Numbered from the stretch's first letter, positions 10,702 through 31,302 are shown. The stretch: DNA of 64,000 bases from an uncultured Gammaproteobacteria bacterium (GCA_963768295.1 CAVYHN010000027.1:127009-191008); one strand, 5' to 3'. Made by a program: numbers and translations. The notes: a model not told the origin generated them from the sequence alone.

Positions 10702-10732
10702 ACCAGCGATAAAAAGGTGCTAGGGGAGTCTA

Positions 10733-11902: not shown

Positions 11903-11922
11903 CCCTAGCCCGGAGAAGTAGA

Positions 11923-13089: not shown

Positions 13090-13245
13090 TCCAGTTCATC
13101 ATTAGCCAGGCGCCTCATTCCGTGTCTGGATAATCCCACCGCCCGGCAACCGGGGCAGCCCGGTTATCTTGAAGCGCCAGTTTCCCGACGAAAAACCTGT
13201 ACGTTCCCCGTAAGGTCGATCTGCGCTCTACCGCGCCTAATTTAA

Positions 13246-13330
13246 AGAAAGCAGGCGCTCAGAAATCCGCGTTGACCGGTTGAGCTGACAACCCTTTTGA
13301 GACGCCCACTAAGAAAGCCACGTCGAATGA
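13246..13330 (+). repeat. Island repeat family, degenerate copy (I0)
   Basis: tttgagacgcccactaagaaagcc resembles module M2 of the other copies. Confidence 0.35.
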
Positions 13331-13527
13331 GATGACTTAGATTGTTACTCTATTTGTTAATTAGCTAACTGCCCATTCTGCGTTCGCCAGAATCAACGTA
13401 TTTGCGATCAGACAGTCCCTTTAGATGACCTGTATCAATTACTATGCTTCGAAACAGCCCATTTAACCCATTTGGGTGAAGACAGGGATGACATATTTAT
13501 ATTTTATGGGAAAATATAGCAGGGAAA

Positions 13528-14208
13528 ATGAGGAGTAAGATGAAGCTTAAATCATTCTTGGTTGGTTATTGTTTATTTTTATACTCTGGCCAAACTTTGG
13601 CAGCATTAATAACGTACGACTATTCATTCGATACACCACAATTTAACGAAAACCCGTTTGGGCCGGTGAATGATTTACTCCAGCTTGCGGGGTCAACGAT
13701 AACTGGATCTATAACTCTGGATACAGACAATATTGGTGTTCGCAATCCGATAGGGACACGGACTTGGGATGGTTATGCGGTGAGTTCTGGAGGACTAACT
13801 CACAGTGGAGAACTAGACCTGGTCGGTTTCGATACTCAAGCTAGTGTAGCCTATACGCCATATCTCCCAGATAACCCGGGCACTATTCTTAATAGTATTT
13901 CGGGTTGGACTATCCAAGATAGTGATGAGATTCGATTCGATCTTACAATTGACTTCGAACAACTACGAGTTGCAGCACAGTGCTCGGACTTAAAACCAGA
14001 TCCCGATGATATTGGTGTATACGACGCTTGCATAGAAAATGGCAGTACTTATAACAGGAGTATTGCGAATTATCGACCATTAACGAACCTCAGTTTAGCT
14101 CAAGTTCCAGCATCCCCATCACCTGTCCCAGTACCAGCAGCTGTGTGGTTATTCGGTACAGCACTTATTGGATTAGTAGGATTTAGTAAGCGAAGAAAAT
14201 CTGCTTAA
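13528..14208 (+). CDS. Secreted protein with a VPLPA-CTERM (exosortase-type) sorting signal
   Basis: N-terminal signal peptide. C-terminus VPVPAAVWLFGTALIGLVGFSKRRKSA. Confidence 0.7.
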   Translation: MRSKMKLKSFLVGYCLFLYSGQTLAALITYDYSFDTPQFNENPFGPVNDLLQLAGSTITGSITLDTDNIGVRNPIGTRTWDGYAVSSGGLTHSGELDLVGFDTQASVAYTPYLPDNPGTILNSISGWTIQDSDEIRFDLTIDFEQLRVAAQCSDLKPDPDDIGVYDACIENGSTYNRSIANYRPLTNLSLAQVPASPSPVPVPAAVWLFGTALIGLVGFSKRRKSA

Positions 14209-14232
14209 CCAATAGCCTGTGAATTAACTTGA

Positions 14233-14262
14233 AGCCCCGCTATCGTGCGGGGCTTTTTTTTA
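14233..14262 (+). terminator. Rho-independent terminator
   Basis: agccccgc-tatcgt-gcggggct hairpin followed by T9. Confidence 0.75.
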
Positions 14263-14270
14263 TTGAATGG

Positions 14271-14375
14271 TGAGTGTCCGAAATTGGCCAAAAAATGTCT
14301 CCCACTAAAGCTCTATGAGCGTCAGCTTACGAGAAAACCGACGCTCAGACTCGATACATCAGGGGCAAGAACCGA
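14271..14375 (+). repeat. Island repeat copy I1 (modules M1-M2)
   Basis: gagtgtccg..ttggcc...gagcgtcagcttacgagaaaaccgacgctc hairpin. Confidence 0.6.
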
Positions 14376-14564
14376 CCCAACTGAGACACTGCTGCCAAAC
14401 ATCTCAGCCAATCAGGTGGTAGATTTAATCCCGATCCACCTAATAAAGTCGAGATAACAATTACCTATAACAAATCAAACGTGGCTATCAGAATAATGTT
14501 TGATGTGTAATTATGAACATCCATCGGGCCGCAAATATTAAACAAAAGATAGGGAGTAAAGATT

Positions 14565-16043
14565 ATGCGTACTTTTAGTTTATTAGCTGCACTATTTGTT
14601 ACATTTATGATGTTTAGTCTCCAAGCAAAAGCACAAAGCATTCCTCCGGCCTCCGATTGGAGCGCCAGTAACGTTATCACTCTAAATAGAAACTCTCCTG
14701 AACCGACCATGGCAGTGATTGATATTGCTACCGGCGTACTCCTGTCTTACGACGCGCCAACTGGCGGAATCAATGTTGGCACATCGGGACGCCAATACAA
14801 TTTTGTTACCAATGCATCGGTATCTAGTATTCTCACGTTCGACTTATCTATCGACGCAATTAACGGAACATTCAATAATTCGCTAACACTAGAAATCCTA
14901 CATAATGGTAACGTCGTTAGTACTCTGGATTCGACAACTGCGAATACATACACTGCTGATTTTCCAAATCAATCTCTGGACCTTAGTGCCGGTGACTCTT
15001 GGGGCATAAGAGCAACTGCTGGCAACTTTTCTCAGAGCACTGGGACAAGTTCCGAGATTTTAGTAACAAGTATAGAAAATCAAGTCCGATATGATGTTGC
15101 AGATGATTGGAGCGATATTCAAAATCCGAACGGTGTCTGGACCTACGCGGGCGACAGCGGAGCTCTATTGACCATCAATCAGACGGACTGGGATCCGGGG
15201 AATATATTCTTCTCTAGCCAGCAGCAAGCATGGGCTGACGCGATATTCCCAACTCCTGGGCATGTGCCGATGTGGTTCAGGACCTCAGGGCCTTCCGCTC
15301 TAGATGTAACCGGGGTGGGCATGCACGGTTCGGAGGGAGGCAACGTTGCGTGGGTCGGAGTTGTCTGGACGAGTCCGACAGATGGAACGATCAATATTGA
15401 TGGCGGCGTATGGCATGCATTTAAGGCGATTGACAGTTTTGGAAGTGACCACCGGGTCAGAAATTCGGATTGGAGACTTAGACTCAATAACACTGTGCTT
15501 GCTTCCGGAAATGTTTCTGGCACGGATGGTTTTTCGTCCGCCTCACCCTTCGCATTTTCTGCCGGGTCCAACGGCACGTCGTTAAGTGATATACCCATAG
15601 TAGCGGGTGATGACCTGGTCCTGGAATTCATCAGTCCCACTAGTTTCGCGACATTTATTGGTATCGATTTTGTTGTGACTCTTAATCATCCCACTCCCGT
15701 AAGCACACCGCAATGCGACATCCAGTTGAACCAGGCTAACTATGTCGATGGTGAAACAGTAACCGCGAACGTTTTCCGTTTTGCAAATCCGACAGGGGTT
15801 CCTGTTGCAACGGAGATAAAATGCTGGTTGGGCGTGCCCGGAGTTCCACCCATACCAGTTATCAATGTTGGCGCAGATGGTAGTGTCGTGTTCCCAGCAG
15901 GCATGGATATTGATTATGGACCCATTCCACTCTTTCCTGTTACCGGCCTGCCGCGTGGTAGCTACGAGTTGAGCTGTCGCTTGCTGGACCCAGTTACCGG
16001 TGAACTTCTCTGCGAAGATCGTAACTTTTTCGACATCCAGTAA
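14565..16043 (+). CDS. Secreted hypothetical protein (492 aa)
   Basis: Signal peptide MRTFSLLAALFVTFMMFSLQAKA; Ser/Thr/Asn/Gly-rich. Confidence 0.55.
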   Translation: MRTFSLLAALFVTFMMFSLQAKAQSIPPASDWSASNVITLNRNSPEPTMAVIDIATGVLLSYDAPTGGINVGTSGRQYNFVTNASVSSILTFDLSIDAINGTFNNSLTLEILHNGNVVSTLDSTTANTYTADFPNQSLDLSAGDSWGIRATAGNFSQSTGTSSEILVTSIENQVRYDVADDWSDIQNPNGVWTYAGDSGALLTINQTDWDPGNIFFSSQQQAWADAIFPTPGHVPMWFRTSGPSALDVTGVGMHGSEGGNVAWVGVVWTSPTDGTINIDGGVWHAFKAIDSFGSDHRVRNSDWRLRLNNTVLASGNVSGTDGFSSASPFAFSAGSNGTSLSDIPIVAGDDLVLEFISPTSFATFIGIDFVVTLNHPTPVSTPQCDIQLNQANYVDGETVTANVFRFANPTGVPVATEIKCWLGVPGVPPIPVINVGADGSVVFPAGMDIDYGPIPLFPVTGLPRGSYELSCRLLDPVTGELLCEDRNFFDIQ

Positions 16044-16065
16044 ATAGGTAGATCCAAGACCACTA

Positions 16066-16089
16066 AGCCCCGCTCCGGCGGGGTTTTTC
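16066..16089 (+). terminator. Rho-independent terminator
   Basis: gccccgc-tccg-gcgggg hairpin followed by T5. Confidence 0.65.
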
Positions 16090-16099
16090 ATTTCTGCCG

Positions 16100-16262
16100 A
16101 GCGTCTCTTGTTGGCCGATTCGAGAAGCCTGGGAGGCAGATTTCAGCGTCTCCTATTGAGAAAACTGACGCTCACACCTGATGAAGCAGCGGCGATCTAC
16201 GACCCACAACGGACCCTCAGCGTTCCAGCTTTGCCGCGTCCGGCTGCATGCGCTTGTTAGAG
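16100..16262 (+). repeat. Island repeat copy I2, complete (M1-M2-M3 plus the 3' attC-like unit 16204-16262)
   Basis: cttgttggccga...agcgtctcctattgagaaaactgacgct...cagcggcga...CCACAAC..gctgcatgcgcttGTTAGAG. The TTA of the terminal core is the stop codon of minus-strand gene 16257-16877. Confidence 0.7.
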
Positions 16263-16877
16263 TTTTTTGGAGCTATTGGCTCTCGCTGCATATAGGCCCA
16301 GTAATCCAGAGGCAAACAATACCAATGCCCCTGGAATGGGTACAGCGCTTATTGTTCCACTGACGTTGGATTCCAGATCGCCAAATTGTGTTAAAGCACC
16401 TTGAAGCGCTCCTACTCTCAATCGGTCAATAGTACTACTTAAGACTAGGTCAAAAAGCTCAGTCGTGCTTCCAGGAGGTAAAAAAGGATTTGTGCCAATG
16501 TCAAATACAATGCTGAAACTACCAGCTGTAATTCCGTCAATTGTTGGACCAGTTCCTGTAAACAATAAATTAAACCAACCCGCTGAATTGATCGTAGATA
16601 TTAAAGCATTTTCTGCAGTGAAGGCTTGCGCTCCGTAAGTACTATCAATCCAACTGAATGTGCCAGAAACACTGTCGATTGTTGATGTGCTAATGTTCCC
16701 ATTACCAATGTTGAATATGATGTCCGATGTGACCGTTGTTCCAATAGGTAACAAGTTTAAAGCCTGTGGAAGTCCACTGCTCATATCAGCTGAGGTGTTT
16801 ACTGACACCAATGCTGCATGGGAATTGGTTGCAATGACTAAAGTTATTGCTCCAAGTAATTTGACTAGTAGTTTCAT
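16257..16877 (-). CDS. Secreted protein with a PEP-CTERM/VPLPA-CTERM-like C-terminal sorting signal
   Basis: Signal peptide; C-terminus VPIPGALVLFASGLLGLYAARANSSKKL. The stop lies inside the repeat core, and GTTAGAG sits 38 nt upstream of the ATG. Confidence 0.6.
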   Translation of the reverse strand: MKLLVKLLGAITLVIATNSHAALVSVNTSADMSSGLPQALNLLPIGTTVTSDIIFNIGNGNISTSTIDSVSGTFSWIDSTYGAQAFTAENALISTINSAGWFNLLFTGTGPTIDGITAGSFSIVFDIGTNPFLPPGSTTELFDLVLSSTIDRLRVGALQGALTQFGDLESNVSGTISAVPIPGALVLFASGLLGLYAARANSSKKL

Positions 16878-17135
16878 ACTTTCTCCTTGTTGTGCTTCTT
16901 TCTTCTTAAAACTCTAACTTTGATTTAGACGGATGCTGTATTTTTCGGCAATAGACGGAATCCGCCTATTGCATTTGATTCTTTTTATGAAAATAGATGG
17001 CACGTCATTGTTATTATGTATTTTCCTGGTTCCTATTTCCTAAAAATATTTATGGCAATCCGAGATTCCGCTTTTCGTCAAAAGAGTTATACCAGCCTAT
17101 CCAGGCGAACTCAACGAATGCCCGGTTCGTGCCTG

Positions 17136-17345
17136 AAGCAGTAGTTATATTACAAATCCTGAATGTCGGCTGTTGGCCGAAGATTGCCTCCCGCCCTAGT
17201 TTTTTGAGGGTCTCCTTTGGAGAAAACAGACGCCCAAAAATTCCCATTGAGCGGCAGAAACCGCATCCCGAAACAGACGCTCGCGCCAGTGTCGAACCAA
17301 TTGCGCCGCGGGCGCTTTGTCCGATTGCATGCGCTTGTATGGTTG
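17136..17345 (+). repeat. Island repeat copy I3 (long 5' extension, then M1-M2-M3 and the 3' unit)
   Basis: The 48-bp extension gaagcagtagttatattacaaatcctgaatgtcggctgttggccg is identical to copy I11. It contains the exact 19-mer ttggccgaagattgcctcc. It ends GTCGAAC...gattgcatgcgcttgtatgg. Confidence 0.7.
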
Positions 17346-17410
17346 TTCCTGGAGTGTATTCACCTTTTAACTCCCCCTTTCATTGAGTTTTTCTATAGTA
17401 AAAAGTGATT

Positions 17411-18535
17411 TCACTCGTCGAACGAACAAGGCGACAGGCTCATTTTCGGGCCCTGCCCAAGTAACCAGGTTGTCAGTTTATCGGGATCCACTCCAAAACC
17501 ATCCCAGAGGTCCTCATCAAGGTGAACCTCCGAATCGATCGAGTATGAATGAAACTCGGGACTGTCGAAGATATATGGAAAGCTACCTTTCCAGCGACCG
17601 CCGCATACACAATTTCGGGTTGGCTCCGGCGAACATTCCCATCGACGCCGTAGCAACAGTTTTTGTCCCGCGACCGTGTTCTCGCAAGCGACAGATGGAA
17701 AACCAACGCCGAGCGCGATGTAAATCGGGGCGGTTTCCTGCGACAGGCCCTCGCATTTAACAAGTTCGAAATGTGGGTCGATGATATCGACCGGTGATAC
17801 TTCTCCAGATGCGTAGCGTTTTTCGAGTTCGGCCTCGAGTTCGCCCAGCGGCGTATCGGGGTCACTCGGTCTCAGCACACGCTTGCGAAACGCTGCGGCG
17901 CCAACCGCTATCTCACTGTGATCAATGACCCTGCCGGGCGCGCCGTCCCAACTCGCGAGTGCACGAGCGACAGCGGCGAAATGATCCATCGCCTCTTCTC
18001 TGCAAACATTGGGGCGTATCCGGAAAGGCCAGGGCTCCGTGAGCTGCCAGACGACCTCACCGTTTTGCCGATCCTTTAGTAGATAGGTTATATCCGTGAA
18101 TTGCCCGGCGTTCTTACTGATCTGCCAACCTTTCGGGGGATAGATTTTCGGGAGATATTTTATCATCGTGAACGGCTGGACGTCGGGCTTAATGATTTGC
18201 CAATCTTTCGGGAGATAGATGATATCCGGCTTTGAGGCTCTACTTTCCAGGGAGTATCTGGCGGCTGCGCCCTGATGCACCAGCGTCAGACCACTTCGGT
18301 CCAGCCAGTTGGCCAATACCTCGCCGAACTGCGCCTCGTACAAAAAGAACTTATAGCCCGCCCAACTCCGACAGCTGAAACCAGGCCCGGGGACGAACCC
18401 TTGTGGCTGATGTATCAAGATACTGTCACTGACGGTCGCGGTGGGGGTAACGCTAACCGGAGGTCTAAGCTGTTTCGGCGAGTTCGTGATGCCACAGCCA
18501 ACGAGCAAAAAAATACATGCGGCCAATGCCGCCAT
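17411..18535 (-). CDS. Hypothetical lipoprotein
   Basis: ORF 17411-18592. The likely start is MAALAACIFLLVGCG with a lipobox LVGC. No recognisable domain. Confidence 0.5.
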   Translation of the reverse strand: MAALAACIFLLVGCGITNSPKQLRPPVSVTPTATVSDSILIHQPQGFVPGPGFSCRSWAGYKFFLYEAQFGEVLANWLDRSGLTLVHQGAAARYSLESRASKPDIIYLPKDWQIIKPDVQPFTMIKYLPKIYPPKGWQISKNAGQFTDITYLLKDRQNGEVVWQLTEPWPFRIRPNVCREEAMDHFAAVARALASWDGAPGRVIDHSEIAVGAAAFRKRVLRPSDPDTPLGELEAELEKRYASGEVSPVDIIDPHFELVKCEGLSQETAPIYIALGVGFPSVACENTVAGQKLLLRRRWECSPEPTRNCVCGGRWKGSFPYIFDSPEFHSYSIDSEVHLDEDLWDGFGVDPDKLTTWLLGQGPKMSLSPCSFDE

Positions 18536-18889
18536 GTGACCGAGGGCGACGCCCGAACTAAACCGCCGACAGCTAAATATGGGCTTTTCCAAGTGCTTCT
18601 CCCGTGGGCATAGTACAAATAACTAGAAGAATAAAAGTTCTATCTGCCAGTATCAATCGGCGAAATCAAATCCAGGATCTATCCTTTTTTTCTGTTATTT
18701 ACTGTAATGCCTGAATAATTGCCCACCGTTTTGCCTTTTGTTCCCTAATGTTTAACAGTTGATTATTTGGAGGGCTCAACTGGTGTTTTATGCAGTTGGT
18801 ACAAATATTGCGATGTTAAGCAAAATTTTGTCATCTATTTTCAATAAACTCTATGTCCGCTTCTGGCTATTCTCGGAAGCCTGGACCTT

Positions 18890-18965
18890 GAATGCAAGCG
18901 TCTGTTATTGAGGGAGTGCCCGCGCCGAGAAGTTTATGATGACTGATTGCGCTTGCTATGTTCCA
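18890..18965 (+). repeat. Island repeat, degenerate 3' unit (I16)
   Basis: gcaagcgtctgttattgaggga...ctgattgcgcttgctatgttcc. It supplies the stop TAG of gene 18956-19213. Confidence 0.45.
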
Positions 18966-19213
18966 CCCTTCATTCCCGGTACTTCACCTTCAAATCCCTC
19001 TGCGATTCTTTGGCGCGCACTTCCGAGCAAAGATTCGTACTCCTGATCGAAAAATGCAGGCGAAGTCCTATCGATCTGTCCAGCTATCTTCATCAGGGCG
19101 ATGTATTCAGCAGAATGGATGAATTCAAGTTTATCTGATTCGTCGAATCTGTGAAAAAAATCGAATAAGACCACTGCCTCATCTTCAGTGATGTTCAAAG
19201 TATAATCGTTCAT
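18956..19213 (-). CDS. Small hypothetical protein (85 aa)
   Basis: ORF bounded by repeats; no recognised domain. Confidence 0.4.
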   Translation of the reverse strand: MNDYTLNITEDEAVVLFDFFHRFDESDKLEFIHSAEYIALMKIAGQIDRTSPAFFDQEYESLLGSARQRIAEGFEGEVPGMKGGT

Positions 19214-19248
19214 AATTCTTCACCTGTGAAAACAACATTAACACTATA

Positions 19249-19370
19249 CGGTTTTTATCCTGATAACATATCGTCACGATATATGTGGGAGGCTGCTATT
19301 GGTCGATCTCAGAAGCTCAACTTTCGAGAATGAGCGCCTCCTGTGAGGAAACCGTGAGGAAACCGGGACA
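19249..19370 (+). repeat. Island repeat copy I4 (5' extension, M1-like, M2-like)
   Basis: ggtttttatcctgataacatat...gggaggctgctattggtcg...gagaatgagcgcctcctgtgaggaaacc. Confidence 0.5.
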
Positions 19371-19534
19371 GATTTAGTTGTTTTTGACTGAACCTACCTC
19401 GAGTAATATATTCACCTGGAGTTATATAAATCTGTCCCGGTATTTTCCGTTCCGGTATTTTCCGGTATTTTTATATTTTGTCTGTGTCGTGAAAGGTATA
19501 ATGACGCAATTTGCGCTGCATACCGGGCACTAGT

Positions 19535-20086
19535 ATGAACACTGAGATCAATTACAAGAGTAACCCTTTGAATGGAGTTGGTTTAAAAAACTTGTTGATC
19601 GAAATAGTGGATCACTATGGTTTTCAGATTCTCTTCGCCTATTTAAACATCAATTGTTTTAAGAATAATCCGAGCATTGAATCCAGTGTGAAGTTTCTTA
19701 AGAAAACAGATTGGGCGCGTGAAAAGGTCGAAGCTTTCTATTTGTACGAATTTAAAAGTTTACCTAAAGCATCGTCAGAACAGTTTACACTACCTCCCAG
19801 GGATCGAATTGTTCCAAATGATCAAACGCCAGGTACGCCTGCTGAACTGAGCCTTGAGGATGCTGAGCAATTGAGTGAGGAGCGTGCAGTAAAAGCTGCT
19901 GTATGGGATCTGGATGCAGGACGTCGCTCGGGCAAGAGCTTTAACACTCAACAAAACAAGCGTTCCAATGAACGAGACAGTATTCATAGTGAGAAGAATG
20001 ATCTTGAGTTGCCGGAATCAGCAAGTCGCTCTGATGAGGGAGACATCGATCCATGGGGGAATTGGAAAAATAAATCGGGACGCTAA
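19535..20086 (+). CDS. DUF2132 (VF530-like) domain protein with a C-terminal low-complexity extension
   Basis: [21 protein letters not shown]...[20 protein letters not shown] matches the DUF2132 core. Confidence 0.55.
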
Positions 20087-20143
20087 TTATGTATCTACTG
20101 AATCGGGGCAAGAGCAGTTAACGGCTGCTCTTCATAATTATCT

Positions 20144-20266
20144 GGGCGTCCGGTGTTGGCCGAAGATTGCCTCCTACCATGACTTGACGAGCGGCAGCTT
20201 ACGAGAAAGTTGCCACTGAAATCATATACACCAGCAGCCGATTTCGGTTATTCAATTTGTTAGGTG
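20144..20266 (+). repeat. Island repeat copy I5
   Basis: gggcgtccggtgttggccgaagattgcctcc...tgccactgaaatcat..cagcagccg...tttGTTAGGT. The TTA of the core is the stop of gene 20260-20499. Confidence 0.65.
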
Positions 20267-20499
20267 GACGATTGGTCATTTTTTCTCTGGTACTCTCGGA
20301 CGGCCAACACGAGGAAGAGAATCAAACACGCCCCGGAAATTACAATCCACGCAATCTTTCCGGCCTCGCTTTCTATTGGTTTTTGAGTCCAGAAAATCAC
20401 CTCAGCATTAGCATAATTTAGTAATGTCAGGGCTCCAATAACCACCGAGCAGAAGGCCAACATGGCGAGCCAGACCAGCATGAACAATTTATGCTTCAT
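20260..20499 (-). CDS. Small membrane protein (2 TM helices)
   Basis: 79 aa with two hydrophobic helices; the stop is embedded in the repeat core ACCTAAC. Confidence 0.45.
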   Translation of the reverse strand: MKHKLFMLVWLAMLAFCSVVIGALTLLNYANAEVIFWTQKPIESEAGKIAWIVISGACLILFLVLAVREYQRKNDQSST

Positions 20500-20524
20500 T
20501 CAGTTCATCGGCTCTTCTCACCTG

Positions 20525-20589
20525 GCGCCTCGCATCAGCGGCAAAATGCGCGCGTAGCGGGCACTTTGTCCGACAGCATGCGCTTGTTA
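20525..20589 (+). repeat. Island repeat copy I6 (3' attC-like unit only)
   Basis: catcagcggcaaaatgcgcgcg...ctttgtccgacagcatgcgcttGTTAGGGC. Confidence 0.6.
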
Positions 20590-20593
20590 GGGC

Positions 20594-20872
20594 TCATTGG
20601 AAAATATTCAAATTTTTTTTCCGTTCCTCGGTGAATTCCCACCATTTTTTTAAAGGGCCACCTTCCATATATCTCACCGCGGAAATGAACACATCAAGAA
20701 CGCATGGGTCGTGTCTCTTTTGTGTGATGCTGCAAAGGTCTCTATATAACTGATATGGATCTTTCCCTATCAGTTCGGTTGGCTTATCCAGGCCTAAAGC
20801 AAAGAAATCTTTCTCAATAGCTAAACCAACGTTTGGGATGTCACGAAATTGGTTTATGTCGCTCCGTTTCAT
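20594..20872 (-). CDS. Helix-hairpin-helix small protein (TfoX-C/Cdd1-like)
   Basis: DIPNVGLAIEKDFFALGL...DPCVLDVFISAVRYMEGG. GTTAGGT lies 14 nt upstream of the ATG and CCCTAAC lies at the stop. Confidence 0.5.
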   Translation of the reverse strand: MKRSDINQFRDIPNVGLAIEKDFFALGLDKPTELIGKDPYQLYRDLCSITQKRHDPCVLDVFISAVRYMEGGPLKKWWEFTEERKKNLNIFQ

Positions 20873-20887
20873 TTCTATTCTTTGATG

Positions 20888-21055
20888 ACCTAACAGTCTA
20901 ATTATAAGGTTTTTGACCTGATAACATATTACCGCTTCAATGATGGGAGGCTGCTCCTGGCCGAAATACGAAGCTCATCGTATGCGATCGAGCGTCTTCT
21001 TTGGGGAAAACAGATCCTCAAATTACATAAATCAGTGGCGATAAACGATCCTAGT
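20888..21055 (+). repeat. Island repeat copy I7 (CCTAAC core, then M1-like, M2 and M3)
   Basis: aCCTAACagt...gggaggctgctcctggccg...gagcgtcttctttggggaaaacaga...atcagtggcgataaacgatcc. Confidence 0.55.
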
Positions 21056-21127
21056 GTGGCTGACTTTTAAGCCACGAATTTTAGGGGAATGTATCTTTCA
21101 CCATTTGATTTTGGCCAATTTTTAAAT

Positions 21128-21988
21128 TCAGTTTCGCGACCAAACTCGCGGGTATAGATCTGTTCCCGGGCGATCACCCGGCTTGAGTCCATGTTCTGTC
21201 ATGACGGAGCTGTGATCTGGATCCATCCCGCAGTCCCTAAACTTGATGCGTACGTCATCGCCCAGCCACTTGGTAGTGAATACTCGCAAGTCGGTATCTT
21301 CATGTAGTTTGCCCGACCCGCCATGTATGATCCGGCTATTGAAAGCCACACAGTCGCCCGGTTGCATATCCCAGCTTACGACACCGAAACTTTCAGGGTC
21401 GGCATCAATGTCTGGGAGGGCAACTTCAGTGACGCCCGAGAAATCGACCTGGTCGACCGCTATTTTGCCATCCGGATTTAAAGCACCGAAGTTGTACTGG
21501 TAAAACACGGAGTCGAGTCGGTGAGAGCCGGGCACGAAAGCCAGAGCGTTTTCCCGTTTGACCGGAACCAGCGGCATCCAAAGAGTGCAAGTGTCATAGC
21601 CCTCCACAGACCAATAGGGCTCGTCCTGGTGCCAGGGCGTAGCAAACTGACTGCCCGGGGAGCGCACAAATACTGCATCGAAGTAGAAGTTGATATGTGC
21701 CGACTTCATCAACTGGCCGGCAATTTGGGCGGCGGGCGAATCAAAAATAAACTGTCGGTACTCGTTGATACCCTGCCATGCCTGGCTATCCCAAAACATG
21801 GTGCGTCCCTCGGCGTCCCGGTCCCACACGCGAGAGCGGTCTGTCGGATCTTCACAATTGGCGATCAGCCCCTTATCCAGCAGATCAATCCATTCCAGGT
21901 CAAACAAACCGCGAAGCAGGACAACTCCGTCACGTTGATAGGTTGTAATCTGCTCTGATGTAACTGGGCGAAGTAAATCACTATTCAT
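21128..21988 (-). CDS. Phytanoyl-CoA dioxygenase (PhyH) family Fe(II)/2-oxoglutarate oxygenase
   Basis: 286 aa; HQDEPYW (HxD) and a downstream H...R region typical of PhyH. Confidence 0.75.
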   Translation of the reverse strand: MNSDLLRPVTSEQITTYQRDGVVLLRGLFDLEWIDLLDKGLIANCEDPTDRSRVWDRDAEGRTMFWDSQAWQGINEYRQFIFDSPAAQIAGQLMKSAHINFYFDAVFVRSPGSQFATPWHQDEPYWSVEGYDTCTLWMPLVPVKRENALAFVPGSHRLDSVFYQYNFGALNPDGKIAVDQVDFSGVTEVALPDIDADPESFGVVSWDMQPGDCVAFNSRIIHGGSGKLHEDTDLRVFTTKWLGDDVRIKFRDCGMDPDHSSVMTEHGLKPGDRPGTDLYPRVWSRN

Positions 21989-22397
21989 AATTTTTATATT
22001 TTAAGTATGAAAGTTTTAAATACAAGAAGTAGGTCTTGTTTAGCCATAGGCGTAAATAGGAAAATTCAGTGAGTAATTACATTGGCGTGAAAACAATTGT
22101 CTATGGAAATAAGATGGTTGCTTAGTTACCACTGTTTTAAACCGGAATCAGTCTATTCAGCAGAATCGGAGACGGATATGAACACCTCTATCTAAGCTCG
22201 TCCCAAAGCCAATGGCTGCTTGTGGCGAAGATCGCCACCCAGTTCTTGTATTTAAGTGTCTGCTTGTGAAACGCATCGCAAAAAAATCCTTAACGGATCG
22301 AAATTGCGGATTCATTTATACGAAGTGTGTGATGGTAGACATATATTTCCCATGACGCGTCTTATTCTTTAGGTATTATGCGTCACGAAAAATCATT

Positions 22398-22700
22398 ATG
22401 AACGGCAGCGCAAACAGCGTATTTGATACCCTGGAAGGCCGAACATTTATAATCGGCAGAGAAGGGCATATATACGTCAGTGACCCCTCTGCGAGCAAAG
22501 AGCATGCCGAGATGAAAATTGCTGACGGGAGAATCCGTATTCGAGACCTGGGTTCAACCAATGGGATCTACGTCGTGAAAGATAATAAACCAGTGCGCCT
22601 CAAGGAAGATTATGTGGAACCACATCAAACTATTGCGATAGGTGAGCAGAAGTTCACAATTCAAAGCTTGCTGACGATTGTTGGTGCCTTTGCTAGTTAA
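22398..22700 (+). CDS. FHA-domain protein (stand-alone, 100 aa)
   Basis: GREGHIYVSD...SKEHAEMKI..GRIRIRDLGSTNGIYV matches the FHA signature. Confidence 0.7.
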   Translation: MNGSANSVFDTLEGRTFIIGREGHIYVSDPSASKEHAEMKIADGRIRIRDLGSTNGIYVVKDNKPVRLKEDYVEPHQTIAIGEQKFTIQSLLTIVGAFAS

Positions 22701-22750
22701 TCCCATTCTTTTTGGCGTGCAACCTGGTCAGACAGAGTTAAAGTAAAGCT

Positions 22751-22927
22751 CAGTGGCAGCTGTTGGCCGAGGGTCGCCTCTGAACTCTAAGTTTTGAGTG
22801 TCAGCTAACGGGAAAGCAGGCGCTTAAAACTCAAAGATCAACTTCCCGCTAACTACTCAAAGCTGATATTCAGCACCAGGCAAACTGAAGCCGTATTGTT
22901 CTATCCGACTGCATGTGCTTGTTATGG
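22751..22927 (+). repeat. Island repeat copy I8, complete (M1-M2 plus the 3' unit 22847-22927)
   Basis: cagtggcagctgttggccgag...gagtgtcagctaacgggaaagc...CGCTAACtactcaaagctg...atccgactgcatgtgcttGTTATGG. The TTA is the stop of gene 22922-23164. Confidence 0.7.
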
Positions 22928-23164
22928 TTTTTTCTTTTGATCGCCCCCTTTGCTGCCGTTACTATCGCCGATACCATAACCAGAAGGGAAAGATATCCAT
23001 TTCCCATGATCTGCACCATGAGAAATTCCTACTCCCAATATGACCGGCAAAATACCCCACAGACTATCATCATGCAGGATCACGTAAAACCCATATCCGA
23101 GAATGCAAAGCCCTATAATTCTTTGAATATATATTCGTCTAATTGAGTAGTATTGAGTAACCAT
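22922..23164 (-). CDS. Small membrane protein
   Basis: ORF 22922-23173. The ATG at 23164 lies inside the GTTATGG core of repeat I9. Hydrophobic 80-aa product. Confidence 0.4.
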   Translation of the reverse strand: MVTQYYSIRRIYIQRIIGLCILGYGFYVILHDDSLWGILPVILGVGISHGADHGKWISFPSGYGIGDSNGSKGGDQKKKP

Positions 23165-23219
23165 AACGCTCAAATCAGCGGCACAGCTTTGCTAGGTCCG
23201 ACTGCATGCGCCTGTATGG
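23161..23219 (+). repeat. Island repeat copy I9: minimal 59-bp attC-like unit with inverted 7-bp termini
   Basis: CCATAAC-gctcaaatcagcggcacagctttgctaggtccgactgcatgcgcc-TGTATGG. It fills the whole spacer between two minus-strand genes. Confidence 0.65.
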
Positions 23220-23239
23220 TTCTGTGTGCAATATTGGAA

Positions 23240-23584
23240 TTACCCAGCTCTACTACCGTTTGGCATGTGCAGTTCTGGCATAGCCAAACAAGGTGTGAGC
23301 TTGTCGGCATAACCAATATCGAAAAGCATCCCTTGAGATACTTCACCAGCCATTTTTCGGTCTGGTAAATTAACGACGAACAAGGCTTGCATGCCTTCAA
23401 TCTCATACGGGTTTTCACGCTTTTGCTTTATACCAGCGAGAATTGAGCGAATATGATTCCCAGGGTCTACGGCCAACTTGTCAGAATCCTTTACTTCTGA
23501 CACTGTTGTAATCGTGCCGACTCGAATGTCTAGCTTTTCAAAATCCTCGAATGCGATTAATTCTTTAATAGGTGCTTGATTCAT
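23240..23584 (-). CDS. tRNA-binding (EMAP/CsaA/YgjH-like) domain protein
   Basis: IAFEDFEKLDIRVGTITTVSEVKDSDKL...VVNLPDRKMAGEVSQGMLF; canonical GTTAGGC sits 47 nt upstream of the ATG. Confidence 0.65.
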   Translation of the reverse strand: MNQAPIKELIAFEDFEKLDIRVGTITTVSEVKDSDKLAVDPGNHIRSILAGIKQKRENPYEIEGMQALFVVNLPDRKMAGEVSQGMLFDIGYADKLTPCLAMPELHMPNGSRAG

Positions 23585-23625
23585 CTTAATGTCTTTTAGT
23601 TAAATTTGTTGCAATAGCCTAACAG

Positions 23626-23790
23626 TAGCGTTAAAAAATAATTGACCGTACGACATATTATCACTTTATTATTGGGGGGTCGCTATTGGCCGAAGATTGC
23701 CTCCTGGCCCAGCCAATTGAGCGTCTCCTTGCGAGAAAACTGCCACTGAAATCATTAGAATCAGCAGCCGCGTCCGATCCTAAGCCGACA
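23626..23790 (+). repeat. Island repeat copy I10 (GCCTAAC core, M1, M2, M3)
   Basis: GCCTAACagtagcg...gctattggccgaagattgcctcc...gagcgtctccttgcgagaaaactgccactgaaatcat...cagcagccg. Confidence 0.65.
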
Positions 23791-23934
23791 CTGGGAAACG
23801 AAATTTCAAGAGCTGCTATGTGCCCGAAGCTGCCATTGATACCGACATGACCTGCGTTTTTAGTGACGTAAAGTGGTGCGAAATATGCTCGTGTCTATGT
23901 GAATGTTAGCTTGCTTAGATAACTAACATGCTTA

Positions 23935-25371
23935 TCATTGAAACGCAGGAATAATATATTTCTTCATAATATTATCAGCGGATGAAGTACCATCGAAATC
24001 GTATGCAGTAGTAACAACAACCAGGTTTAATTTTTTTATAATAATTATTCGTTGACCTCCAAAACCAAAAGCGGCTATTGCCCTATATTTCTTGCCGTTA
24101 ACGTAATAAATTCTGCTCCACCAATAATATCCATATCCGCTCCATTTGTTATCATTGGTTGTAATATGTTTTGTTGTGGATTCTTCTATCCACTCTTCAT
24201 CTATGATTTGCTGATCGTTCCAAGTTCCCTTCTCCAACATAATTTGACCAATTTTTGCCATATCACGGGGGCGTAATCTAAGTCCTCCTGCTGAATTCTG
24301 CCGACCGTCCGTTTGTTTTTCCCAATACGCATTTTCTATACATAAATTTGATAACGAGCTTTTTCCGACAAAATCCGCGAGGGATGCTGCACCTGTTGCA
24401 TTCTTTATTATTTCGCCTATTACGGTGACATATCCACCACTGTAGGTAAAAACCTCTCCCGGAACATATACCGAAGGAACCGAAAGAGTAAACTCAATGG
24501 AATCAGTACTATTCATCTCTCGCCTTCGAATGTTATTTGGATGTTTATATGATGGGTTATGCTCATCCCAGTCTAATCCGGCGGACATGGTCAATAAGTC
24601 TTTAATTGTGATTTTCTCCTTTTTACCAATAAGGATAGATTTGTACTTTGGTAAGTATTTAAGGATAGGGTCATCGACACTTTCAATAAAACCTCTATTT
24701 ATTGCATCTCCTAAAAGTAAGGAGGTAAAGCTTTTGCTGATCGACTGCATCTGATGGTTTTCTTCCTGGCTCCATCCCCGAAAATACTGCTCTACAACAA
24801 GCTTTCCATCTTTCAAAATCAACAAACCGTTTTGTTTCCCGAATGAACCGTTTTTCAGTTTTTCAATGAATTCGTTTGTTATTTTATCGTCGCCACTAAC
24901 TTCGATAACGGAACCCGTTTTGATACCTTGTTGGCATTCTGCTTGTGTTTGGTTTTCGCCTATCTTGTCCAAACCATCTAACGAATCGTAAATACCTTCC
25001 TCATATCTTGTTTGAGGTATATGCAATCTTGTAAGGCTTTTTTCCAATTGACCTTTTTCTTTGATTGTCAAATGCTGATATTTTCCATTTTCCAATTTAT
25101 TAAATCGACCACGAATATTGAAGCTTTTCAGACGAAGGTCCGTATCCGTTTCCAGGATTATTTCATCTTTTCCTCTCCAATCTTTTCCAAACAGTTTCCC
25201 ATTTTGTTCATTAATGATTACTTTATAGTCTCCAAGGATTACATTATAAGCTCCACTTGCACGATCAGAATAGAAGCCAACATACTTGTCACTTTCAAAA
25301 TTGGTAATTCCAGAGCTACCCGCACATGCAGATAGAAATAAAACAGATGTGATCACTAGATAATATTTCAT
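23935..25371 (-). CDS. Serine hydrolase of the beta-lactamase/PBP family with an N-terminal lipoprotein extension
   Basis: Lipobox LSAC; SISKSF (SxxK) active-site motif; 478 aa; very AT-rich. Confidence 0.6.
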   Translation of the reverse strand: MKYYLVITSVLFLSACAGSSGITNFESDKYVGFYSDRASGAYNVILGDYKVIINEQNGKLFGKDWRGKDEIILETDTDLRLKSFNIRGRFNKLENGKYQHLTIKEKGQLEKSLTRLHIPQTRYEEGIYDSLDGLDKIGENQTQAECQQGIKTGSVIEVSGDDKITNEFIEKLKNGSFGKQNGLLILKDGKLVVEQYFRGWSQEENHQMQSISKSFTSLLLGDAINRGFIESVDDPILKYLPKYKSILIGKKEKITIKDLLTMSAGLDWDEHNPSYKHPNNIRRREMNSTDSIEFTLSVPSVYVPGEVFTYSGGYVTVIGEIIKNATGAASLADFVGKSSLSNLCIENAYWEKQTDGRQNSAGGLRLRPRDMAKIGQIMLEKGTWNDQQIIDEEWIEESTTKHITTNDNKWSGYGYYWWSRIYYVNGKKYRAIAAFGFGGQRIIIIKKLNLVVVTTAYDFDGTSSADNIMKKYIIPAFQ

Positions 25372-25488
25372 GAACTCTTTATTCTCCTTAAGAGCTAACA
25401 GAGAATTCTACAGACTCCCTGTTTACTGAGTTTTAGGGAGTCTGTAAAACCCAGTATACGTGAATGGGCAAAGGTCTCCTAAGTGCCG

Positions 25489-25600
25489 GAAGCAGTAGTT
25501 ATATTACAAATCCTGAATGTCGGCTGTTGGCCGTACCAGGAAGCTCGAAACCCGCGTTTAAGTGTCTGTTTACGAGATAAAATCACGCAAGACAAAATAC
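25489..25600 (+). repeat. Island repeat copy I11
   Basis: Shares the 48-bp 5' extension with I3, then ttggccgtaccaggaagctcg...gtttaagtgtctgtttacgagataaaatcacgc. Confidence 0.6.
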
Positions 25601-25602
25601 AG

Positions 25603-25624
25603 CAAACTGATCGATTTAACTCAT
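25603..25624 (+). promoter_or_regulatory. Conserved motif ATTTAACyCATTTGGGTGAwG upstream of plus-strand cassette genes; candidate promoter or operator
   Basis: A near-identical 21-mer occurs at 13461-13481, upstream of gene 13528. This copy is about 70 nt upstream of gene 25693. Confidence 0.3.
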
Positions 25625-25692
25625 TTGGGTGATGTGGATGAGTCAATCGCTTGTGTAGTATCGGTTTAACTAAGTATGACTGATGAGGAAAT

Positions 25693-25953
25693 ATGGATAC
25701 TCAGCCTCAAATTGAACCAACATCAACGGCTCGTCTTTTAATTTGCCTGAGTCTTGCAATCGATGAGACCAAGCTAATCAAATCTATCAAAAATTCAACG
25801 GCATTGATTAAGCAATTAGAAGCAGAGAATCCTTCCTCGCACAGATTGCTTTTCTTAAAGAGAGAAATATCGAATTTTGAAGCTAGACTGGCGAAAACTC
25901 GCGGTAAAGCCAGCAGAATAAAAACCGTTACCAAGCTACCAAAATTCAAATAG
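25693..25953 (+). CDS. Small hypothetical protein (86 aa)
   Basis: ORF bounded by repeats, with the conserved upstream motif. Confidence 0.4.
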   Translation: MDTQPQIEPTSTARLLICLSLAIDETKLIKSIKNSTALIKQLEAENPSSHRLLFLKREISNFEARLAKTRGKASRIKTVTKLPKFK

Positions 25954-25973
25954 CTCAGGCCTTTTATTTATGC

Positions 25974-26040
25974 GGCCGTTCCTGGCCGAAGATTGCCTCC
26001 GAACTTTTTTTTGAGTGTCGGCCTAGGGAAAGCTGATCCT
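25974..26040 (+). repeat. Island repeat copy I12 (M1-M2)
   Basis: gccgttcctggccgaagattgcctccgaactttttttgagtgtcggcctagggaaagc. Confidence 0.6.
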
Positions 26041-26121
26041 TTCCTATTTTGCCTTTGCAGTTAAGTCGGATACCCGTAGCCTCGAGTGGAACAAGTAAAC
26101 TGTCAGCACAAATTACAATAT

Positions 26122-26565
26122 TTAATGCTCTGCAAATACCTCCATATTTCCCTGTTCATCGAAGCTTATGACGTTATGGGATTGGACCGTACCCCCACTT
26201 TCCATACCCGGCGTGCCAACAGGCATGCCCGGGACCGCAATCCCCTTGATGTCTGGCCGGAAAAGTAACAGCCGCTTGATATCCCGGTGGGTAATATGGC
26301 CCTCGACTATATATCCATCGATGACCGCGGTATGACAGGCCGCCAGTCTTTCCGGTACCCCGAGGCGCTTTTTCACCGCTAGAACGTCGCGAGTACTCTC
26401 AATTGTGACGTTGTAGTTTCTATCCTGTAAATACTTTACCCACTTGGTACAACAGCCACACTCGGGATTTTTGTAGACCACTATATCCTTTACTGGAGCG
26501 TCGCTGGCGAAAGCCATTGTTACGGTCAGGATATTTAATATTCCTAACATTAAAATCGATTTCAT
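26122..26565 (-). CDS. DUF411 metal-binding protein (copper/silver-resistance-associated family)
   Basis: Signal peptide; CGCC...MPVGTPGMESGG are conserved DUF411 motifs. Confidence 0.65.
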   Translation of the reverse strand: MKSILMLGILNILTVTMAFASDAPVKDIVVYKNPECGCCTKWVKYLQDRNYNVTIESTRDVLAVKKRLGVPERLAACHTAVIDGYIVEGHITHRDIKRLLLFRPDIKGIAVPGMPVGTPGMESGGTVQSHNVISFDEQGNMEVFAEH

Positions 26566-26657
26566 CTTGATGCCCCTGTCGATAAAGAACGCTATAGGTA
26601 AATATAGGATGTACCCGATATTAATCCAATCCCTGATTCCAGCTGCCCCTCAATATC

Positions 26658-26757
26658 ACGAACTCAGCGGCGAAAGGCGACCCAATGCCGACCCCCGCAA
26701 ATGTTTCGAATTGCCAGTGTAACGGGTACTTTGCTCGACTACATGCACTTTTAATTA
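26658..26757 (+). repeat. Island repeat copy I13 (M3 plus a degenerate 3' unit)
   Basis: CACGAACtcagcggcgaaaggcgaccc...ctttgctcgactacatgcacttttaattaagg. Confidence 0.5.
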
Positions 26758-26795
26758 AGGAAAACTGCTGTTTGATCCTTTACTCTGTTGGTTCT

Positions 26796-27632
26796 TTATT
26801 TCACTTGTGACCAGCCATGTTCAGGTCGATATTCAACTTTATAAATTTCGCTATTTAGAAACCAAGCGACAATAGCATTACCCTCGTTATCGATATTGAT
26901 TTTTGGATAGGTGTATACCCTAGTGCCGATATCGCTGATCAACACAGGCCCTGACCAGCCCGTGTGCTCACTGTAAACAGCCGCATAGATAAACTGCAAA
27001 TCCTGATTCCAGGTAATCGCGGACTGGCCATGATTGTTAATCGTTTCATCGACTCTTCCCAAATTAATCCCCGGCATCGCCAAGTCCAGGTCAGCCAGCT
27101 CAAAATCCTGAGGCAGGGTGTCGTCGTTAACCATGACGGAGAATATTGATTCCCGGGAGGAGTGTTGAAACAGTGGATTAGGTCGAAGGGAAGGCAAAGT
27201 GACATACAAATTGTCCCGGGCAGCGTTATCGCCATTCGCATCGTGCGCGTGAACTTCGATGTTATTTTCTCCAGACGACAAGTTGATTGTGAATTCCCAT
27301 TCTCCGGTACTACTGGTGAAACTGGTACAGCTATCAATCGATGGAAAATTGAAAACACAGATGAAAATATCAGAGCTGGGATTACACTCAACAACCGGAA
27401 TGAAAAAAGGCCATGGAAAACTTGTTTCGCAAACATTAACCGTTTTCTGAAACACCGTGCCGCTTACCGTAATTTGCGATTGGCTAGGCATAGCCTGGTA
27501 GGCACTGGAACTGGTAGGTGTCTCTATTTTAATCCAGCCGTCACTTTCCTCGTCATCACTATCACTACTCCCGCAACCACTTAGAATTAGCAATGCGGCA
27601 AACAGGATAGGAAAGAAATTATGAGTTTTCAT
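26796..27632 (-). CDS. Hypothetical lipoprotein (278 aa)
   Basis: Lipobox ILSGCGSS followed by a D/E/S-rich linker. Confidence 0.5.
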   Translation of the reverse strand: MKTHNFFPILFAALLILSGCGSSDSDDEESDGWIKIETPTSSSAYQAMPSQSQITVSGTVFQKTVNVCETSFPWPFFIPVVECNPSSDIFICVFNFPSIDSCTSFTSSTGEWEFTINLSSGENNIEVHAHDANGDNAARDNLYVTLPSLRPNPLFQHSSRESIFSVMVNDDTLPQDFELADLDLAMPGINLGRVDETINNHGQSAITWNQDLQFIYAAVYSEHTGWSGPVLISDIGTRVYTYPKINIDNEGNAIVAWFLNSEIYKVEYRPEHGWSQVK

Positions 27633-27802
27633 TTTCTCACCATGATCGGTTAGTAGAACTTCGATTGAGGTGAGTATAAATCCCCAAATTTCTGGCTACG
27701 ACCCGTCGAGGAATAGTAGCGGAATATGCAACTAAAGGGATTGCTGCCTACTACATCTTCGGAGAAATCCATGACTTGATTACACATAATCAAGCATTTG
27801 GC

Positions 27803-27880
27803 GAGTGTCAGCTCCTGGCCGTACCAAGAAGCTCGCAACTCTTTAATGAGCGTCTCCTTTGGAGAATGAGCAGGACTGGC
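27803..27880 (+). repeat. Island repeat copy I14 (M1-M2)
   Basis: gagtgtcagctcctggccgtaccaagaagctcg...gagcgtctcctttggagaatgagc. Confidence 0.55.
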
Positions 27881-28022
27881 CCACGATAATTTCACCCTGC
27901 CATGGGTATGGCTTAGTCGATTTGCTCGGGTTTGTTGCAAGCAGGTGTTTATTCCTCTTTTACTCATTGGGTCATCGCTGAGCCTACGTTAAACTGAGAA
28001 TAATCGTTTTTCGCCGAGGTAA

Positions 28023-31178: not shown

Positions 31179-31302
31179 GCATACTGCCCATCGTTGATGC
31201 CCGGGGTAGATGGGTATCTGGATTACTGCTAAGCTGATTTTGTAATTGGTAAGTATTTATCCGCCAGGATAATGTGAAATTAACCCGGAGTGAGTACGAT
31301 CT

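Follow-up and report, generated by a model that had tools for sequence, protein, structure and literature searches.

A stretch of 64,000 nucleotides (nt) from an uncultured Gammaproteobacteria bacterium (GCA_963768295.1, CAVYHN010000027.1:127009-191008), referred to below as the window, contains at positions 13090-28022 an AT-rich block lying between pilT/pilU-type ATPase genes on its left (10733-11902 and 11923-13089, by Pfam) and ydbH on its right (28023-31178, by Pfam). A preliminary description of this DNA had noted that the block interrupts pilU/ydbH synteny, and the GC profile (0.39-0.52 in the block versus 0.53-0.63 in the flanks) and the Pfam assignments of the neighbors agree with this. 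About 17 unrelated open reading frames (ORFs) in both orientations were counted in the block, where 16 such genes had been listed before. The spacers were said to hold, nearly everywhere, one repeat family of integron attC type in a single orientation. A repeat was indeed found at 15 places in the block, always on the plus strand, but the material comprises two separate families: an attC-type unit, corresponding to the 3′ unit of the repeat, and a 122-nt imperfect palindrome, corresponding to its 5′ unit, which is designated A* here. The block is probably an old integron-type attC array overlaid by a second site-specific recombination system that has its own core in A*. The positions of the block and of the members of both families are as follows.

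13090-28022, no strand: AT-rich cassette block (GC profile and Pfam scans of inner and flanking ORFs)
20518-20594, minus strand: attC-type site, best copy (covariance model 71.1 bits, E 1.9e-20; fold z = -0.94)
23159-23222, minus strand: attC-type site (covariance model 38.9 bits, E 6.9e-10; sequence)
17270-17345, minus strand: attC-type site, decayed (covariance model 23.7 bits, E 6.7e-5)
16202-16264, minus strand: attC-type site (covariance model 22.1 bits, E 2.2e-4)
22859-22929, minus strand: marginal attC-type remnant (covariance model 11.1 bits, E 0.9)
13241-13311, plus strand: right half of A* only (3′ arm of the tip and right end), left edge of the array (nhmmer E 0.027; consensus alignment)
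14258-14390, plus strand: full copy of A* (nhmmer 101.5 bits)
16090-16223, plus strand: full copy of A* (nhmmer 97.3 bits)
17145-17284, plus strand: full copy of A* (nhmmer and direct-repeat finding)
18842-18912, plus strand: left part of A*, weak (nhmmer E 0.0025)
19282-19351, plus strand: left part of A*, weak (nhmmer E 9e-4)
20137-20246, plus strand: copy of A* (nhmmer 79.5 bits)
20934-21053, plus strand: copy of A* (nhmmer 73.9 bits)
22204-22268, plus strand: left part of A*, degenerate (nhmmer 21.7 bits)
22741-22877, plus strand: full copy of A* (nhmmer 63.5 bits)
23660-23801, plus strand: full copy of A* (nhmmer 97.7 bits)
25503-25579, plus strand: left part of A* (nhmmer 25.9 bits)
25969-26040, plus strand: left part of A* (nhmmer and comparison with the related locus L010)
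26641-26704, plus strand: right part of A* (nhmmer 25.8 bits)
27792-27866, plus strand: left half and tip of A*, cut at GGAGAA, right edge of the array (nhmmer; consensus alignment)
31987-32117, plus strand: solo A*, after the ydbH-ydbL operon and outside the block (nhmmer; comparison with the related locus L028)
32145-32247, plus strand: second, weaker A* beside the solo copy (nhmmer 30.3 bits)

Related loci were collected with an 18-mer from the 5′ unit, TGGCCGAAGATTGCCTCC. A scan against one genome per species returned 91 stretches (L001-L091), nearly all from metagenome-assembled genomes (MAGs) of uncultured Gammaproteobacteria and with many different contigs per MAG. Metagenome and viral scans with the same 18-mer added about 135 loci, which gave 227 sources and 1.5 Mb in total (the window and related contigs).

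The conserved arm of the 3′ unit, searched in the direction of the minus-strand ORFs, gave 96 matches to the 5′ arm in the 1.5 Mb. Sixteen of these belonged to complete sites of 61-75 nt with the layout RYYYAAC-AAGC-GCAT[G]CAG[T]CGGAC-variable stem-loop-GCCGCTGATGCGAGGC-GTTRRRY, and the inverted R″ (RYYYAAC) and R′ (GTTRRRY) cores were present in all 16. An attC site is defined by a central spacer that stays unpaired, by 2-3 extrahelical bases of the L boxes on the R″-L″ arm, and by a variable terminal stem-loop that keeps its structure but not its sequence (PMC2727003). When 15 complete sites from related loci were aligned and drawn in the classical attC form, 85.7% of the cells paired, with 4-7 compensatory changes per pair in the variable stem. 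The covariation was 0.272, compared with 0.162 for shuffled alignments (0/500 as high) and 0.06-0.10 when the partners were slid. The spacer, the extrahelical bases and a variable stem-loop conserved in structure were thus all found, and the two extra bases lie on the R″-L″ arm, in agreement with this definition. The bottom strand of L132:53-113 folded with z = -5.75 into an R stem, an unpaired spacer, two bulges and a loop, and that of a related site in L045 folded with z = -2.93. An alternative parse of the 3′ unit as a non-canonical attC, with a spacer of 8-9 nt and the extra bases on the other arm, was rejected because the complete related sites contradict it.

The cassette boundaries carry a footprint of recombination at these sites. 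For 12 consecutive site pairs (2 in the window and 10 in related loci), 35 of 48 variable positions were complementary between R′ of one site and R″ of the following one, whereas the mean of permuted controls was 25.0 and only 20 of 100,000 permutations were as high (p ~2e-4). The start of a cassette is thus complementary to its own R″, which is the footprint of a crossover at G|TT, and the core complementarity pointed out in the preliminary description proved real against permuted controls. There are also complete short attCs of this family that lack A* and show a G|TT footprint of their own. The complete sites, the covariation of the 15 aligned ones and the model matches in the window described below show that the 3′ unit is a genuine attC-type site, as had been proposed.

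Rfam holds no attC family, and a lineage-specific covariance model built from the 15 sites was used instead. With filters off, it gave four significant matches in the whole window, each of them inside the block and on the minus strand. The top strand of the attC sites is therefore the minus strand, not the plus strand to which the repeat had been assigned. The best site (20518-20594) comes after the ORF 20594-20872 and has an R″ of CCCTAAC and a degenerate R′ of GCCAGGT. The site at 23159-23222 has CCATAC as R″ and GTTATGG as R′, the latter including the start codon (ATG) of the next ORF (22922-23164), which has CCATAAC as its own R″. In the site at 16202-16264, R″ (CTCTAAC) contains the stop codon of the ORF 16257-16877, R′ is GTTGTGG, and the 3′ arm is common to the right end of the A* copy at 16090-16223. 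The 3′ end of the decayed site at 17270-17345 overlaps the right end of the A* copy at 17145-17284, and in the marginal remnant at 22859-22929 R″ (CCATAAC) contains the stop codon of the ORF 22922-23164. The stop codons reported inside AAC cores were all verified (16257, CTCTAAC; 20260, ACCTAAC; 22922, CCATAAC), and the attC-type unit was recognizable in only 4-5 spacers.

Clusters of attC sites without an integron-integrase (CALINs) have the working definition of two or more attC sites that share a strand, lie less than 4 kb from each other and have no intI close by (PMC4889954). With minus-strand sites at 16202, 17270, 20518 and 23159, and with no recombinase found in the parts of the 64 kb that were examined, the locus is therefore a CALIN as regards the 3′ unit, in line with the original suggestion. 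The reported lack of a tyrosine recombinase was borne out by several searches. The window gave no match to IntI1 or to Y207, a small recombinase described below, by tblastn, and none of its ORFs of at least 80 amino acids matched IntI1 or XerD by phmmer. Pfam scans covering the block, 1-13 kb and 32-42 kb detected no recombinase, and at 42-64 kb the check consists of tblastn and phmmer. The IntI1 and XerD query sequences served as probes only, their matches being re-scored with NCBIfam. A complete integron would have, at the head of the array, an intI gene for a tyrosine recombinase with the IntI-specific extra domain, together with attI and Pc. There is no complete integron here: no intI was found in the window, and no protein in the 1.5 Mb exceeded the integron-integrase cut-off, the best score being 169 bits (L202) against 265. 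The protein in L202 (1850-2728, plus strand) and another in L118 (214-1089, plus strand) are Xer/IntI-like tyrosine recombinases of 291-292 amino acids located close to A* pieces. They score 158-169 bits on the integron-integrase model and do not have the IntI-specific insertion; the recombinase gene of L118 has an inverted A* left half ~130 nt upstream.

The second family, A*, has the consensus TGAGTGTCCGCTTC-TGGCCG-AAGATTGCCTCC-variable-TGAGCGTCTCCTTTGGAGAAAGCAGACGCTCA-...ATCAGCGGCGAT...CGACCCAAAGCAGACACTCA. It consists of pairing 20-nt ends, an inner stem and a tip hairpin (GAGCGTC...GACGCTC), with variable stretches between them. The left and right ends pair in 68-88% of cells and lie inverted about 85 nt apart, and the right-end core is CGACCCA compared with TGGCCG on the left. 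Using nhmmer with a broadened profile, 17 copies were detected in the window, those of the block with E-values from 4.5e-31 (best) to 0.027 (weakest). All 17 are on the plus strand; 15 are in the block, two follow the ydbH operon (31987-32117 and 32145-32247), and none was detected elsewhere. No GTT/AAC is conserved in the A* ends: in an alignment of 79 copies these triplets take freely varying positions, and the two bases that precede TGGCC also differ freely from copy to copy. The GTTGGCC and CCACAAC cores that had been read in the 5′ unit fall at positions that vary between copies and are not conserved. A drawing of the whole composite as one long hairpin was also tried and rejected: pairing is seen at the A* ends, but the middle does not pair and covariation is lacking.

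In the 1.5 Mb, A* is present in 534 non-overlapping copies, of which 192 are of full length, and most of the latter have no attC arm nearby. It forms arrays, many per genome in uncultured Gammaproteobacteria, with up to 11 nhmmer matches per 8-kb locus. Copies within one locus are nearly always co-oriented, and arrays on one contig may face opposite ways (L011 versus L023; L034/L042 versus L061), which rules out that their orientation follows the direction of replication. As to genes recurring at array ends in the MAG loci, only ordinary paralogous families were seen (TPR regulators, FHA, ABC, kinases). Many A* copies have a third conserved module, AATTATAAGGTTTTTGACCTGATAACATATTATC, immediately to their left, in the window at 19234-19271 and 20892-20929 and in related loci such as L002, L009, L011, L023, L025, L034, L038 and L043. 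On the minus strand it reads ...CCTTATAATT, with a TATAAT box shortly upstream of minus-strand ORFs, and it may be a portable promoter carried by the units.

Comparison of A* copies with one another located a switch point between unrelated flanks. Sixteen pairs of copies share one flank only. In the left-homologous pairs, homology is lost immediately after TGGCCG in 7 of 7 cases, and in most right-homologous pairs TGGCCG is also where homology begins. The base that directly precedes TGGCCG goes with the left flank, and therefore a crossover of the G|TT type, as at R′ of attC, is excluded for A*; the breakpoints lie within TGGCCG. One copy, L044:7600-7742, equals the left of L050:6329-6462 joined to the right of L014:1051-1194, the joint being confined to CTGGCCG. 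In the window, 17129-17179 and 25483-25533 share 98% identity that ends right after TGGCCG (...GTTGGCCG), and the DUF411 unit matches L010 (94%) from 25983, the G after the T (25982) of TGGCCG. The syntenic ydbH locus of another MAG (L028) is 90% identical over 4.1 kb, and the match ends inside the solo A* copy right after TGGCCGAAG (~32018), with unrelated DNA beyond. Copies represented by their left part only end mostly at TTTGGAG|AAA. At the array edges, only the tip and right half of A* is present on the left and only the left half and tip on the right; these halves might be the trace of a circle that opened at the tip and joined the chromosome.

Hidden Markov model searches with IntI1 and XerD of the ORFs in the 227 sources revealed a recurrent small tyrosine recombinase of 205-208 amino acids, designated Y207, which was present in 4 of the ~135 metagenome or viral loci picked only by the A* 18-mer. 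Its only Pfam match is PF00589, and it consists of the catalytic domain and about 40 N-terminal residues. By eye, residues of Y207 align with the RKHRHY catalytic positions. Y207 scored below all NCBIfam cut-offs, with 21-26 bits for integron integrase (cut-off 265), 58-59 for XerC (335) and 71-74 for XerA (220); models of tyrosine-type DNA invertases matched along its length with 22-26 bits (222). The best match in PDB was XerD (E 2.5e-4). More than 8000 relatives exist in public metagenomes; the best 120 are 75-93% identical and lie mostly on contigs of 1-5 kb, as expected for a multicopy gene bounded by repeats. Some JGI entries call them "integrase", which is the only name given in the sources.

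In about 9 of 12 independent Y207 contexts, an A* left half is located ~45 nt upstream on the same strand and/or ~42 nt downstream in inverted orientation. Both are present in 4 of the 12, the linker sequences are conserved, and all but one of the 13 Y207 loci examined carry 2-9 further A* copies. Y207 is physically bracketed by inverted A* left halves and so occupies a unit of ~860 bp bounded by them. A* itself appears to be a gene-less fusion of two ends of such a unit, the right one having diverged (TGGGTCG for TGGCCG), and we infer that Y207, from a gene at another place in the genome, is the enzyme that acts on A*. In L111 (1820-3542), the Y207 gene is in two fragments, covering residues 1-81 and 168-207 and lying ~1.3 kb apart, and appears to be disrupted by an insertion. 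A fragment of an IS91-family transposase, Y2_Tnp (L246:1-137), and an ORF rich in helix-turn-helix motifs that resembles those of insertion sequences (L251:792-1688) lie beside other Y207 loci, where the arrays are shared with further mobile elements. No description of A* or Y207 was found in the literature searched, whose coverage is incomplete, and this is weak evidence of their novelty.

Among known families, the catalytic domains of XerA, XerC and XerD match Y207 best. In Xer-dependent modules (dif/pdif, and integrative mobile elements exploiting Xer such as the CTX phage), tyrosine-recombinase sites also bound gene modules, and tandem accretion occurs at the site. Unlike these, however, A* does not contain an 11-6-11 site of the dif type, its copies are co-oriented and do not alternate in orientation as pdif sites do, and Y207 has no N-terminal core-binding domain and reaches 71-74 bits at best against Xer cut-offs of 220-335. 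A* is also comparable to elements that target attC (IS1111-attC and group IIC-attC introns) in being a second repeat in cassette arrays, of fixed orientation and touching attC. Elements of that kind code for DEDD transposases or reverse transcriptases, and joining their two flanks restores the attC that they interrupt, whereas no split attC was seen around A*, which also occurs far from any attC.

We propose that the block is a chromosomal gene-cassette array that would have been built and reshuffled by site-specific recombination at two kinds of site. The minus-strand attC sites, each just after a minus-strand ORF, would once have recombined at G|TT and since decayed, and the left half of A* would provide, within TGGCCG, another crossover point independent of the first. 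When two A* copies recombine, the DNA on either side would be swapped; between two direct copies, recombination would release a circle with one rebuilt A*, which could re-enter at any A*. The outcome would be co-oriented arrays at many chromosomal places, also beside core operons. Such circular intermediates presumably exist.

Several observations weigh against this proposal. The genes between A* copies show no strand bias (56 same versus 70 opposite). RNAalifold gave no consensus fold for A*, its covariation equaled that of shuffled alignments (0.149 in both), and a hand-drawn long hairpin paired in 61.6% of cells; an attC-like folded-strand mechanism is therefore unsupported for A*. Neither Y207 nor intI nor any other recombinase was found in the 600 kb of the MAG loci L001-L091, and the assignment of Y207 as the enzyme therefore rests on its association with A* in other samples. 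Four of the 16 one-sided pairs switch elsewhere, in the tip loop or at the right end, and the 18-mer used to pick related loci contains TGGCCG, which could color the breakpoint statistics. The bottom strands of the five attC copies in the window, whose folding had been suggested as a check, are no more stable than shuffled sequences (z = +0.74, -0.94, +0.55, +0.53 and +1.28), on which ground these copies are considered decayed. Such decay, together with the R′ of GCCAGGT in the best site, suits the old, decaying array that had been envisaged. Finally, 80 of the 96 attC 5′ arms continue into A* pieces and not into a canonical 3′ arm, and the two families are therefore entangled in ways that the proposed model explains incompletely. 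The joints recur at ..GCCCGCTAC|, the center of the variable stem, and at TTTGGAG|AAA, the A* tip.

This entanglement is what would be expected if the attC unit and A* were one system, that is, one long, unusual attC for an ordinary IntI encoded elsewhere, the CALIN having split off from a sedentary chromosomal integron. Three of the five attC-type sites in the window abut A*, the L′-R′ arm of each doubling as the A* right end, the L′ motif GCCGCTGAT occurs inside A*, the A* ends resemble R and L boxes, and long attCs such as the Vibrio cholerae repeats provide a precedent (PMC2727003). Nevertheless, we regard this explanation as unlikely. A* occurs alone, as at 31987-32117 and in most of the 192 full-length copies. 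It has neither the conserved GTT/AAC triplet nor covariation, and its crossover in TGGCCG lies to the right of the variable base where the canonical G|TT would fall. About 14 conserved nt extend beyond the crossover, not 6 as in attC. The complete short attCs without A* and the lack of a protein above the integron-integrase cut-off in the 1.5 Mb also speak against a single long attC, and the view that the long 5′ unit is part of attC was accordingly not upheld. Within the attC family itself, the layout of R″, unpaired spacer, L″ with two extra bases, variable stem-loop, L′ and R′, the position of sites directly after ORFs, the stop codons in R″, the boundary footprint and the clustering on one strand all follow integrons and CALINs. 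It departs from them in that the window copies are decayed, that the bottom-strand extra bases are A and C and not the usual T and G, and that the 5′ arms of the lineage are mostly fused to pieces of A*. A* shares the logic of integrons in having one site per unit, a crossover near one end and co-oriented arrays of unrelated genes, but its arrays occur at many loci with unbiased gene orientation, and its candidate enzyme is not IntI.

It is likewise improbable that A* is a selfish miniature repeat that transposes into the intergenic DNA of AT-rich islands, the one-sided homologies being due to homologous recombination and the array owing nothing to A*. Like the doublets of repetitive extragenic palindromes (REPs) termed REPINs, A* is a short palindrome of two diverged inverted halves, exists in hundreds of copies that are exclusively intergenic, and has CGTC-containing arms as do CGTC-tagged REPs. 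The putative mobilizing gene between inverted half-elements mirrors the layout of REPs and their associated tyrosine transposases (REP-RAYT). Terminal inverted repeats and a partner element sharing them, as in miniature inverted-repeat transposable elements, were thus found for A* and Y207, and some breakpoints fall in the conserved tip. However, Y207 is a PF00589 tyrosine recombinase and not an IS200-like Y1 HUH transposase. Neither insertion polymorphism nor target-site duplication was seen in our limited sample, and no match spanning an empty junction was obtained for any of the 192 full-length copies, which in a sample of this size is weak evidence. The joint shared by L050, L044 and L014 falls within 7 nt and is therefore too short for homologous recombination. 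Random insertion would not produce arrays that are co-oriented whatever the gene orientation (17 of 17 copies on one strand in the window), and A* copies act as switch points between unrelated flanks. Taken together, the lack of empty sites, the co-orientation, the opposable arrays and the absence of gene strand bias fit a recombination site better than an inserting repeat. The evidence for the 5′ unit thus favors the non-canonical recombination system that the preliminary description had offered as a fallback.

A mainly regulatory role of A* (invertible switch, terminator or insulator, or small RNA), flipped by Y207 in the manner of a Fim-type invertase and with array building incidental, is very unlikely. 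Y207 does resemble FimB/FimE in its ~200 residues with little beyond the catalytic domain, in its weak full-length matches to invertase models and in its tie to inverted repeats, A* has two inverted ends ~85 nt apart, and a TATAAT-box module adjoins many A* copies. However, the Y207 gene, unlike fimB or fimE, lies inside its own inverted repeats, the sites of Y207 exist in many copies and mark exchanges from one locus to another, the two A* end cores differ, ~85 bp is very short for inversion, A* shows no structural covariation, no Rfam family was found in the block, and the exchange of flanks between A* copies would be left unexplained.

To our knowledge, no system other than integrons that stockpiles and reshuffles single-gene cassettes is well understood. 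The present locus bears on the origin of cassettes and on the frequent arrays without an integrase. Under the proposal of an overlaid array, it would represent a bona fide but decaying attC array covered by a repeat that acts like a recombination site, has a different core and is linked to an abundant family of recombinases without an informative name in the sources searched. More tentatively, A* and Y207 could constitute an undescribed second, independent cassette system. In such a system, a recombinase without a core-binding domain would lie between inverted copies of its own ~65-nt TGGCCG site, and gene-less palindromes derived from it would be spread through the accessory genome of uncultured sediment Gammaproteobacteria, reshuffling arrays of self-expressed genes in parallel with, and partly from pieces of, attC sites. 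The hybrids of attC 5′ arms and A* might then record one system taking over the cassettes of the other. If the link between Y207 and A* is true, many orphan environmental cassette arrays may be maintained by a non-IntI system, and tools that seek only attC and intI would miss it. If the link is false, the locus would be an ordinary CALIN colonized by a lineage-specific palindromic repeat, which would still be useful to know.

The genes in and around the array were assigned by Pfam, and two further features were delimited.

28023-31889, plus strand: core operon of ydbH, a small ORF and the ORF 31503-31889 (Pfam and site positions)
21128-21988, minus strand: PhyH-family cassette gene (Pfam and sequence comparison)

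The ydbH core operon is flanked by two A* crossover sites (TGGCCG at ~27817 and ~32012). The families represented in the block are PEP-CTERM, VF530, Cdd1, PhyH, FHA, tRNA_bind, beta-lactamase fold and DUF411, and several ORFs have no family match. A region comprising the PhyH gene, its own downstream hairpin and its upstream region (21051-22052) is 88-90% identical to L036:6743-7743 and L061:4187-5108, where the surroundings are quite different and a permease-like gene is adjacent. In this case the array seems to have acquired an entire transcription unit. At the left end of the block, the two plus-strand genes are each followed, before A*, by a GC hairpin and a T-run resembling an intrinsic terminator (14232-14262 and 16066-16090), whereas the minus-strand genes run directly into an attC-type site. 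A minus-strand ORF of 105 amino acids (27650-27967) overlaps the A* copy at 27792-27866, has no family match and is probably not a gene. Upstream of the VF530 gene, at 19340-19475, the short direct repeats GAGGAAACCGTGAGGAAACCGGGACAG and CCGGTATTTTCCGTTCCGGTATTTTCCGGTATTTTT surround an inverted pair, GGGACAGATTTA...TAAATCTGTCCC, and this could be an operator-like region.

Directly before the array, three T2SSE-family ATPase genes stand in a row (9667-13089), one pilT-like and two pilU-like paralogues. No identical protein was found for the pilU-like gene. The flanks that were examined contain ordinary core genes (yggS-proC-yggT, pilT, RIO kinase, AsnC, pyrC/pyrB, ruvX, algH and tonB), and no tRNA gene was found. 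At gathering thresholds, the sole Rfam match was far from the block, namely an S-adenosylhomocysteine (SAH) riboswitch at 57212-57284 on the minus strand (57 bits versus a gathering score of 37). It is located upstream of the minus-strand ORF 55778-57196, which it adjoins at higher coordinates.

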